Virus record (IMG/VR): IMGVR_UViG_2534682252_000031
Origin: a virus
Taxonomy: Duplodnaviria; Heunggongvirae; Uroviricota; Caudoviricetes
Strand: one strand, 5' to 3'
DNA: 4,691 nucleotides
In this document: one piece after another, positions 2,470-3,657 of the stretch
Position numbering within the stretch: position 1 is the first letter of the stretch
Layout: every line of letters starts with the position of its first letter
Notes under the pieces: generated by a model
What the model saw: only the letters and a program-made list of their open reading frames with translations
The model's database searches: none
Told to the model about the DNA's origin: nothing
Made by a program: the position numbers and the translations under genes

Positions 2470-2498
2470 ATAATAATCAGATGAAAATCAATAATCAA
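2470..2498 (-). promoter_or_regulatory. Candidate sigma70 promoter for the tRNA pair
   Basis: Minus strand TTGATT (plus 2493-2498), 17-bp spacer, TATTAT (plus 2470-2475). The predicted start is a few nt before the mature tRNA 5' end at 2459. It overlaps the last codons of the AraC-like gene. Confidence 0.35.
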
Positions 2499-3201
2499 GC
2501 CCTTGCCTGGATACATATCTGTCTGGCGGGAAGCCATAATAGCGGTGAAATACAGAAATAAAGTAGGACCGGCTTGAATAACCACATTTTTCTGCTACAG
2601 CCTGTCCATATCCATACCGGGAACATAACATATTTACAGCAACACGCATCCGCTCTTCCAGCAACAAGCGACTGAACATGCCCCCTTCATTTTTCAGTTT
2701 TGTCTTTAACAAACTCTCACTCATATGCAACTGTAGAGCAATCGCACCAAGCGTCCAGCTTGCTGATATATCTGTCTGAATTATCGCCCTGACTTTGGCA
2801 CTTATGCTGGATAAACATCCACTTAAAAACAATGACATCCGTTCATCTGTTTCAAACAGAGACAGGCAGGCCATCATAAGAAACATATCCGTGACCTCTC
2901 CGGAAAATCCCTGGCTGGTAATTAAAGCCGCAGCCAACGCAGGATTGTTGGGTTCCAGCAACAGGTAAAGCGGAATGTCAGTCAGACGAGTCCTCGTCAG
3001 CTTATGCTGACTTTCCAGATATTGACTTACGACGGATTCGCTTATATCGACAATTTTAACTTTGCCATAATGCATAAGGAAAAGCTCCCTGATGCATTTG
3101 GTGGCCAGAACGACTGAGCCTGGCTTAAGTGACAACGTATCCTTTTCAAGAAAAATATTAATTGGGGAGCAAACCATGATAACTGAACAGACAACAGCCA
3201 T
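2488..3201 (-). CDS. AraC-family transcriptional regulator, AppY/EnvY-like subfamily, 237 aa
   Basis: C-terminal double-HTH signature (WTLGAIALQLHMSESLLKTKLK...VAEKCGYSSRSYFISVFHRYYGFPP). The N-terminus MAVVCSVIMVC...KVKIVDISES resembles what I recall of AppY (MDYVCSVVFIC...KLRIVDIDKK). AT-rich gene. In the last 37 codons, 2 of 4 Arg codons are AGA/AGG. Confidence 0.8.
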   Translation of the reverse strand: MAVVCSVIMVCSPINIFLEKDTLSLKPGSVVLATKCIRELFLMHYGKVKIVDISESVVSQYLESQHKLTRTRLTDIPLYLLLEPNNPALAAALITSQGFSGEVTDMFLMMACLSLFETDERMSLFLSGCLSSISAKVRAIIQTDISASWTLGAIALQLHMSESLLKTKLKNEGGMFSRLLLEERMRVAVNMLCSRYGYGQAVAEKCGYSSRSYFISVFHRYYGFPPDRYVSRQGLDY

Positions 3202-3236
3202 TATAATTTTACTTTCATTAGCAATTGGTTAGCTCA

Positions 3237-3242
3237 ATTATA
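3237..3242 (-). promoter_or_regulatory. Candidate -10 hexamer (TATAAT) for the AraC-like gene
   Basis: Perfect TATAAT on the minus strand, about 36 bp upstream of the ATG at 3201. The best -35 candidate (TTGATG) sits at a 19-bp spacing, which is suboptimal. Confidence 0.25.
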
Positions 3243-3336
3243 GCCCCAAAAGGTAAATTATCATCAACACATAAGCAAAGGACTGACAGGTGCCGCCCCC
3301 CCCACCAGCCGCCCATTTACCACAAATAAAAAGCCT

Positions 3337-3534
3337 TCAGGACTGAATGCGTCTGTAACAACCGCACTGATAGTCTGCCAGACCCGCCATAACCAGCTGG
3401 GTCAGTATTAACTGGCAGCGTTCGCGTGAAAGGTAAGTATTCTGCGCAATCTCCCCGACTGTCGCCGGTTCGGTAACGCTTAATTCATTAAACACCACTC
3501 TGGCGGTTTCTGTCATATCCTGCTGTTTTAGCAT
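3337..3534 (-). CDS. Small (about 65 aa) putative DNA-binding protein, possibly a winged-helix FaeA/PapI-like regulator
   Basis: Start placed at the internal ATG 3534-3532, which has AAGGGA upstream. The 106-aa form starting at 3657 begins immediately after the terminator T-run and has no RBS. MLKQQDMTETARVVFNELSVTEPATVGEIAQNTYLSRERCQLILTQLVMAGLADYQ has the pattern of small PapI/FaeA-type wHTH proteins. Weak assignment. Confidence 0.4.
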   Translation of the reverse strand: MLKQQDMTETARVVFNELSVTEPATVGEIAQNTYLSRERCQLILTQLVMAGLADYQCGCYRRIQS

Positions 3535-3657
3535 GTCTTTTTCCCTTTTCCGGTTAACGTGACATACCAATAACTCTTGTCGAAAAAGCCAGCAAGTTGA
3601 AAGACCGGTATTAGCAACCACCAGCGCGTTTAACGCCCCGTGCCGTTTTTCAGTCAT

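Follow-up and report, generated by a model that had tools for sequence, protein, structure and literature searches.

When two putative regulatory genes are found side by side in the late region of a prophage, does their adjacency reflect a common function, or is it only a trace of the way in which the locus was assembled? We consider this question for a stretch of 4,691 nucleotides (the IMG/VR virus record IMGVR_UViG_2534682252_000031, hereafter the window) in which a gene for a small winged-helix protein and a gene for an AraC-family protein lie between a late transcription terminator and two tRNA genes. An original prediction, made from the sequence alone, had proposed that they were inserted there and could act as a regulatory pair in lysogenic conversion. 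The window belongs to a lambdoid prophage of Escherichia coli O157:H7, whose late region it opens; this prophage is Sp11 of strain Sakai, or CP-933O in O island 57 (OI-57) of strain EDL933: positions 1500-4691 are 100% identical to Sp11 (ECs_2190-2194), and many E. coli O157:H7 chromosomes match the 1170-bp region to which that prediction referred with 100% identity. The explanation that we consider probable is that the locus holds the regulatory gene psrB together with a winged-helix gene that was stranded when its own partner, a DNA methylase gene, was replaced by a psr cassette, and that the two do not form a regulatory pair.

The AraC-family gene (2488-3201, minus strand; WP_000301797) encodes a protein of 237 residues that is 100% identical to Sakai ECs_2191. 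The earlier comparison of this protein with AppY is borne out, since the Pfam models HTH_AraC (50 bits against a cut-off of 26.6; 2.9e-13; two stretches) and HTH_18 (37.8 bits against 33.6; residues 155-230) both match above their cut-offs and an alignment that begins at residue 1 gives 31% identity to YdeO and 29% to AppY over the full length, with a common N-terminal MxxVCSV. The protein has the organization of the AraC/XylS family: a C-terminal DNA-binding domain of ~100 amino acids with two helix-turn-helix motifs, which matches the GadX domain in the PDB (2.2e-18, residues 134-233) and also Rns and ToxT, and an N-terminal companion domain, in which residues 1-130 align with the corresponding domains of YdeO and AppY. 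The match to the NCBIfam YdeO model spans positions 1-230, and the equivalog cut-offs are missed by a wide margin (106 vs 348 bits for YdeO, 87 vs 500 bits for GadX); judged by its sequence, the protein is a relative and not an orthologue of YdeO or GadX. Among the PHROGs it falls into phrog_1450 (3.8e-99).

A closer relationship is found among the prophages of O157:H7 itself. The window protein is 91% identical to ECs_1087 of Sp4, which the Tree laboratory named psrA. Reviews describe PsrA (z1789, OI-50) and PsrB (z2104, OI-57) as mutually 90% identical and the psr genes as confined to prophages linked with effector loci and Pch regulators (PMC10877973, PMC8565820). The window gene resembles this family both in its sequence closeness to PsrA and PsrB and in its location in a lambdoid prophage that has effector loci and a Pch regulator: Sakai Sp11 also carries pchB (ECs_2182) and the effector genes nleG5-2, nleG6-2 and nleG2-3, and Sp4, the psrA prophage, carries pchA, tccP2 and espV. 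In a microarray study of EDL933, z2101 is an endonuclease, z2103 and z2105 are unknowns of CP-933O/OI-57, and nleG genes z2149-51 lie in the same island (PMC2907692). This order matches that of Sp11 (ECs_2190, argO5, ileZ5, ECs_2191 annotated as "phage regulatory protein", ECs_2192 as hypothetical, ECs_2193, ECs_2194), therefore z2104 should be ECs_2191, and the AraC-family gene of the window is very probably psrB. A search of the full-text literature found no mention of ECs2191. We place the start of psrB at 3201 rather than at Sakai's shorter, 195-aa call because the alignment with YdeO and AppY begins at the first residue; psr relatives down to 57% identity have lengths of 237-242 aa, in a family that is narrow and essentially limited to E. 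coli and Shigella.

The primary papers on PsrA and PsrB are reportedly those of Tree 2011 and Yang 2015, whose content is given here by way of reviews. According to these, PsrB binds the gadE promoter and the region from -132 to -45 of the hdeA promoter, raises GadE and YhiF, enhances survival both at pH 2.5-3.5 and in the stomach of mice, and activates the glutamate decarboxylase (GAD) acid resistance, thereby repressing type III secretion of the enterocyte effacement locus (LEE); psrB in trans represses this secretion and its deletion has little effect (PMC10877973, PMC8565820). The clearest phenotype is that of the paralogue PsrA, according to review. It had been argued that prophage-encoded AraC-like regulators rewire acid-resistance and virulence regulons, and PsrB is one such regulator; the accompanying remark that no target is identified is overtaken by the published gadE and hdeA promoters and yhiF (PMC10877973, PMC8565820). 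This half of the finding, PsrB and its link to acid resistance and the LEE, is thus already in the literature.

How psrB came to occupy its position is revealed by a comparison with phages that lack it. In blastn, homology between the window and phiP27 extends from 3669, inside the terminator (3658-3687, minus strand), to 3265, and then resumes at 2463, four bases before the tRNA, to continue to 2159; homology to phages with other types of Q gene also begins in the terminator, at ~3669. The 801 bp between (2464-3264, minus strand) are the psr cassette, promoter plus gene, and they fill the place of a methylase gene and of the 3' half of its leader. The cassette starts exactly with a -35 hexamer and ends 24 nt after the psrB stop codon. 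Its predicted sigma-70 promoter (3237-3264, minus strand) has ATGATA at 3264-3259, a 16-nt spacer and TATAAT at 3242-3237, with 10 of 12 consensus matches; it is the single good promoter-like site in the region, and by itself it does not rise above chance, the scan having found 3 sites where 2.3 are expected. The candidate promoter of the original prediction is nevertheless supported by its invariance among the psr paralogues: in seven psr loci with proteins up to ~9% apart, the junction is one and the same and there is hardly any variation in promoter and 5' untranslated region, the -10 being invariant and the -35 nearly so. A junction common to all the psr loci examined points to a single replacement event that involved a self-contained promoter-plus-gene unit. 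The G+C content of the cassette and its surroundings is 40-47%, compared with 52-57% in the tRNA/TerB region.

Psr has thus been exchanged for the methylase. Although both of the genes in question do lie between the terminator and the tRNAs, insertion is true of the AraC cassette alone; the small gene is part of the ancestral backbone, as is the tRNA(CAU)/ileZ gene that forms the right-hand boundary of the cassette. The view that tRNAs canonically follow the terminator directly applies to some Shiga toxin (Stx) phages, but many Stx2 phages (among them phiP27, 1720a-02 and many Stx2a/2d phages) carry the small gene and the methylase at this place. An operon consisting of psr and the small gene was considered and rejected because a hairpin with a U-run and a separate promoter intervene. 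At the other end of the cassette, a promoter-like site (TTGATT, 17 nt, TATTAT; 2470-2498, minus strand) overlaps the end of psrB just upstream of the tRNA-Ile gene. No clear terminator was seen after psrB, and psrB transcripts may run on into the tRNA genes.

The small gene itself requires a correction. It had been read as an open reading frame of 106 aa, and it is a gene of 65 aa (3337-3534, minus strand), in agreement with the coding sequence of RefSeq (WP_000917763) and Sakai (ECs_2192); by gene order it is z2103. The longer frame was rejected, since its ATG at 3657 touches the U-run of the terminator and has no Shine-Dalgarno (SD) sequence and its residues 1-41 are unconserved. In an alignment with Klebsiella, Citrobacter, Buttiauxella and Raoultella these residues vary in both sequence and length, and conservation starts exactly at M42. 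Over 83 loci, the ratio of nonsynonymous to synonymous polymorphism (pN/pS) is 0.10 in the 65-codon core vs 0.91 in the 41 upstream codons, the latter value being approximate as the comparison was ungapped, and nucleotide diversity is 0.03 vs 0.26. Positions 3535-3657 (minus strand) are accordingly a non-coding leader of the small gene that had wrongly been made part of it. The true start has an AAGGGA SD sequence at 3542-3547. Conservation of the small gene, one of the points on which the original prediction could have failed, therefore holds for the 65-aa core; the ribosome-binding site claimed for each gene is present at the 65-aa start, absent from the 106-aa start, and not convincing at the start of the AraC-family gene.

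With what, then, is this small gene normally associated? In a collection with one genome per species (26 true relatives, down to 41% identity in Plesiomonas), a methylase gene of the PF01555 family lies ~150 bp downstream of it, at near-constant spacing, in 24 of the 26; one of the two exceptions is a contig that ends too early, the other has a different downstream gene, and the leader is present in both. The methylase is the conserved partner of the small gene across at least 15 genera, and the pair is also found in prophages of Salmonella and Klebsiella, in phiP27, in 1720a-02 and in many Stx2a/2d phages; in one Stx2k phage, an AraC gene is downstream of the small gene. Of the 80 closest IMG/VR contigs, 36 have the methylase as the next gene and 32 have psr, 12 being unclear, and at least three unrelated types of Q occur upstream. 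The suggestion of a lysogenic-conversion regulatory pair finds no support against this background, in which the small gene is partnered with the methylase across genera and the AraC cassette was swapped in for the latter. One IMG/VR contig (L024:3001-5400) has the order small gene, psr, tRNA region, methylase, an arrangement that is either rearranged or intermediate. The methylase of phiP27 is 87% identical to that of 1720a-02, an enzyme that, by the description of Murray et al. (2018, PMC5778455), closely resembles M.EcoGII, the non-specific adenine methyltransferase on which lysogens stay silent and which does harm under constitutive expression; in the searched passages of that paper there is no mention of the upstream small gene or of the leader.

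The leader is a 135-nt segment between the small gene and the methylase that relatives from more than 15 enterobacterial genera have in common and whose conservation exceeds that of both flanking coding regions (intact examples are L095:3690-3845 in Salmonella, L004:4899-5034 in phiP27 and L089:5313-5446 in Klebsiella). Because single-base insertions and deletions occur within it, it must be non-coding. In two partly exclusive pairing models, 95-98% of the cells are standard pairs vs 25-47% when the partners are slid. In the first, a closing helix GGUCA/UGAUC stops three bases short of the methylase AUG, a start codon that lacks an SD sequence; the second includes a helix that holds the single strongly covarying pair (CG 14, AU 5, UG 3, UA 1). 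A covariation scan of all columns against all others was set aside as uninformative because one divergent sequence dominated it. An RNA structure in the leader is likely, though not proven, and we regard the segment as a candidate cis-regulatory element. Rfam 15 has no match at E <= 1 over the leader of the Salmonella locus or over its relic in the window. A covariance model of the leader (R1, 22 sequences) gives 97-159 bits in methylase-type loci vs 28-41 bits in psr-type loci, and 30.8 bits at 3199-3319 of the window, where the decayed 5' half of the leader survives (3265-3319, minus strand) up to the point at which homology to phiP27 ends, 3265. This relic contains a tract of eight G (minus strand, 3296-3303), made by substitutions, ~35 bp upstream of the -35 box of psrB. 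The tract counts 7-8 G in PsrB-type loci, its place being taken by GGGTGTTAG in psrA-type and methylase-type loci, and slippage could alter the length. In an Enterobacteriaceae metagenome-assembled genome (L111:3675-3802) the leader is present (97 bits) and adjoins a gene that is not a methylase, so the leader can precede other cargo.

If the small gene lost its partner, one would look for a change in the selection that acts on it. Its pN/pS is 0.021 when linked to the methylase vs 0.22 when linked to psr, an about tenfold weaker constraint in a small sample that was chosen for high similarity and in which the psr-linked class consists of 32 viral contigs with 9 unique sequences. In the wing of the psr-linked copies, a phenylalanine that nearly all relatives keep is replaced (F57C), and the Sakai Sp4 copy beside psrA (ECs_1086, L091:13344-13583; annotated as 79 aa) is frameshifted after residue 49 and has lost its wing. 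Such a relaxation fits a small gene deprived of its partner, though the gene is intact here. Might it then be a functionless remnant in the course of becoming a pseudogene? We hold this to be possible, though doubtful. The loss of the downstream partner and of half of the leader, the relaxed constraint with its altered wing residue, and the frameshifted Sp4 paralogue would all agree with such a fate, but reading frame, SD sequence and start codon are intact here and in many genomes, the protein could still work in trans on methylase-type prophages that share its cell, and the EDL933 microarray gave a substantial signal for z2103 (log2 10.5-12), though paralogues cross-hybridise (PMC2907692). 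In the same array z2103 and z2105 (window 3337-3534 and 1606-2109) were ~3-fold higher in an rpoS mutant (PMC2907692). This signal gives a hint that lysogens transcribe genes located downstream of the late terminator, cross-hybridisation among the paralogues being likely.

The fold of the small protein is clear and says little about its role. The AlphaFold2 model (32 relatives; predicted local distance difference test score, pLDDT, 90.7) is a complete winged helix and nothing else, with the topology H-b-H-H-b-b (helices at 4-16, 26-33 and 37-49, a bridge at 24, strands at 53-56 and 59-62). Foldseek against the PDB returned solely generic winged-helix domains, those of IclR, OhrR, SelB and Z-alpha with template modelling (TM) scores of 0.7-0.8 and also ones from O-methyltransferases, and gave no functional clue. 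A profile of the protein found nothing significant among PDB sequences (best E = 0.17), no NCBIfam match was better than E = 0.11, and in PHROGs it belongs to a family of unknown function, phrog_331 (3.9e-37). The database comparison that the original prediction called for thus yields AppY, YdeO and the GadX domain for the AraC-family protein and generic winged helices alone for the small one. On this model the description "small winged helix-turn-helix protein" is right as a fold, "regulator" is unproven, and a winged helix as such would allow DNA, RNA or protein as the ligand. We consider it unlikely that the small protein is a DNA-binding factor of the TrmB/MarR kind that serves the phage late or lysis genes and has no connection with the methylase: the NCBI annotation pipeline (PGAP) does name relatives "TrmB family transcriptional regulator", and the top fold matches do include MarR/OhrR and IclR winged helices, but the Pfam scores for TrmB (PF01978, 16.7 bits vs a cut-off of 25.6) and MarR_2, like that for DprA_WH, are sub-threshold, the bare 65-aa domain is without the dimerisation helices of MarR/TrmB, and no Q or lysis module is linked to the small gene nearly as tightly as the methylase and leader are. 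Quite improbable, finally, is a co-adapted two-gene module in which the small protein controls psrB or joins PsrB on host promoters, for although all the psr loci examined (32 viral contigs, Sakai Sp4 and Sp11, the Stx2k phage) have the two genes side by side, what is left of the small protein's presumed target region, its 5' part, borders directly on the psrB promoter, and the small frame is still intact in psr-linked contigs at the pN/pS given above, the conserved partner in at least 15 genera is the methylase, a single junction in all psr loci means that adjacency reflects one replacement and not selection for linkage, constraint is weaker where psr is the neighbour, and the Sakai copy beside psrA is frameshifted even though it is PsrA that has the clearest phenotype.

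The reading that we prefer, a methylase replaced by psrB with the winged-helix gene left stranded, can be set out as follows. The ancestral layout behind the late terminator is the 65-aa winged-helix gene, the 135-nt leader and an M.EcoGII-type methyltransferase gene; here the 801-bp "moron" cassette of promoter and psrB took the place of the methylase and of the leader's 3' half. In the lysogen, psrB would be transcribed from its own promoter (3264-3237), and after induction a Q-modified polymerase arriving from upstream would also read it. PsrB, as a relative of YdeO, AppY and GadX, would bind the gadE and hdeA promoters and raise GadE and YhiF, as the literature describes, so that acid resistance goes up and, by way of GadE, LEE type III secretion goes down. 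The winged-helix protein may originally have governed expression of the methylase through the leader, and in the window locus it would be either idle or active in trans on co-resident prophages of the methylase type; that it is a dedicated partner of PsrB is not supported. A functional analogue would be the com-mom system of phage Mu, in which a small protein remodels an mRNA hairpin and so switches on the translation of a toxic DNA-modification gene. The methylase-type relatives are similar in that the small gene lies directly upstream of a modification gene whose start is beside a conserved predicted helix and lacks an SD sequence; they differ in that Com is a zinc-finger protein and the small protein a winged helix, and in the window this layout is gone.

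Two further elements of the relatives could belong to such a control. At the stop codon of the small gene, and overlapping it, is a hairpin GCAUUCAG..CUGAAGGC followed by UUUUUAUUUG (3323-3350, minus strand), which is kept in other genera by compensatory changes (GCCUCC/GGAGGC, GCUGCC/GGCAGU, CCUUC/GAAGG; alignment A3, columns 57-87). It is absent from the list produced by a simple terminator scan; to the eye it looks like an intrinsic terminator, and the way from the late promoter to the downstream cargo would then hold two terminators. Outside the window, the sequence TACTGTAAAAATAAACAGT occurs in the first codons of the methylase (~3849-3868 in Salmonella L095; the same position in L094-L117) and is conserved across genera at the nucleotide level. 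LexA boxes have the pattern CTGT-N8-ACAG. TACTGTAAAAATAAACAGT fits this pattern, which suggests a putative SOS link for the methylase. We would tentatively go one step further, to a proposal that is more speculative than the replacement itself and less likely to be right than wrong: the winged-helix protein and the leader could constitute an undescribed safety switch that keeps the methyltransferase off in lysogens and licenses it in lytic growth, and that may include the terminator-like hairpin and the LexA-box-like palindrome. The window would be what remains after this switch lost its target to the psrB cassette, and the stranded protein may cross-talk with co-resident methylase prophages, or with the psrB promoter that now abuts the relic of its site.

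Several points weigh against the reading as a whole or against its parts. The equation of z2104 with ECs_2191 depends on synteny and percent identity. Native expression of psrB may be low, because its deletion barely affects secretion. The leader shows limited covariation, since there is so little variation in its sequence. Control of the methylase by the winged-helix protein is purely our inference, and the fold search shows generic winged helices. Finally, the small gene is intact in 32 of 32 psr-linked viral contigs with a pN/pS below 1, and in such loci it may have retained or gained a function.

In the order of transcription a RusA gene (4376-4681, minus strand; the endonuclease ECs_2194 of Sakai) lies upstream of a Q-like late antiterminator gene (3759-4325, minus strand; ECs_2193, annotated "phage antiterminator"), which matches Pfam DUF1133 (3.7e-105) and Phage_antitermQ (5.9e-08). 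The intrinsic terminator at 3658-3687, directly after the Q-like gene, resembles tR' (stem GCCCGC/GCGGG(U), loop UUUUU, then U7) and ends a short Q-proximal transcript; the simple terminator scan missed this hairpin, and folding confirmed it instead. The 111-nt interval between Q and the small open reading frame folds at -37.6 kcal/mol (z = -3.9 vs shuffles), and so stable a transcript could be a prophage small RNA of the StxS/HnrS type; HnrS, which raises psrA, is reported for Sp9, Sp10 and Sp12 and not for Sp11. A weak, sub-threshold isrK-like Rfam match to the Q-proximal transcript (3658-3758, minus strand; 19.8 bits, E = 0.44) is one on which we place no reliance. Downstream of psrB are a tRNA gene with anticodon CAU, annotated ileZ (tRNA-Ile2, Sakai ileZ5; 2384-2459, minus strand; ARAGORN, Rfam 72.5 bits), argO for tRNA-Arg(UCU) (Sakai argO5; 2207-2283, minus strand; ARAGORN, Rfam 67.3 bits) and a TerB-family gene (1606-2109, minus strand; TerB-like ECs_2190 of Sakai). 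A DUF3927 gene (1499-1609) that is intact in Sakai Sp11 is interrupted here by the insertion sequence (IS) IS629/IS1203 (192-1505), whose programmed-frameshift pseudoknot Rfam places at 1050-1166; this and the tRNAs are the only above-threshold Rfam matches over the window. No complete genome of the genome collection matched the whole window in one piece, so either the IS insertion or the left flank (1-191) is strain-specific.

Compared with known systems, the window contains little that is new in psrB itself, which at the sequence level does not differ from the published gene; its local peculiarity is the IS629 copy (192-1505) 1 kb downstream. YdeO, AppY and GadX, activators of acid-resistance and stationary-phase genes in K-12, are ~30% identical to PsrB and according to the literature have gadE as a common regulatory target; AppY is also prophage-borne (DLP12), and psrB differs in its position as a late-region moron. 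PatE (z0321, OI-8), a different prophage gene that is likened to psrB by description, is according to review an AraC-like activator of gadE and hdeAB that lowers the LEE and uses the same hdeA promoter region as PsrB. At M.EcoGII/M.EcoGI loci the methylase normally follows the small gene, of which arrangement the window keeps the upstream gene and a truncated leader. In common with the lambdoid morons (bor and lom, or stx, which uses this very slot of the late region), the psr cassette forms a separate AT-rich unit that brings its own promoter and lies between late-operon genes; unlike a simple insertion, it replaced an existing cargo gene.

What emerges, besides the corrected coordinates of the small gene (65 aa for 106 aa), is an account of a locus in terms of its past. 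The small protein is annotated and uncharacterised, and its presence beside PsrB is explained by history and not by a function with PsrB. A further lead, mostly outside the window, is the combination of a tightly conserved winged-helix gene and an unannotated structured leader before a methylase of the M.EcoGII type, which finds wide use as a laboratory tool and is silent in lysogens. As for psr, it has its fixed position beside ileZ-argO because the cassette displaced an M.EcoGII-type methylase, and a single slot in the late region of these phages alternates between anti-restriction cargo and cargo that acts on the regulons of the host.

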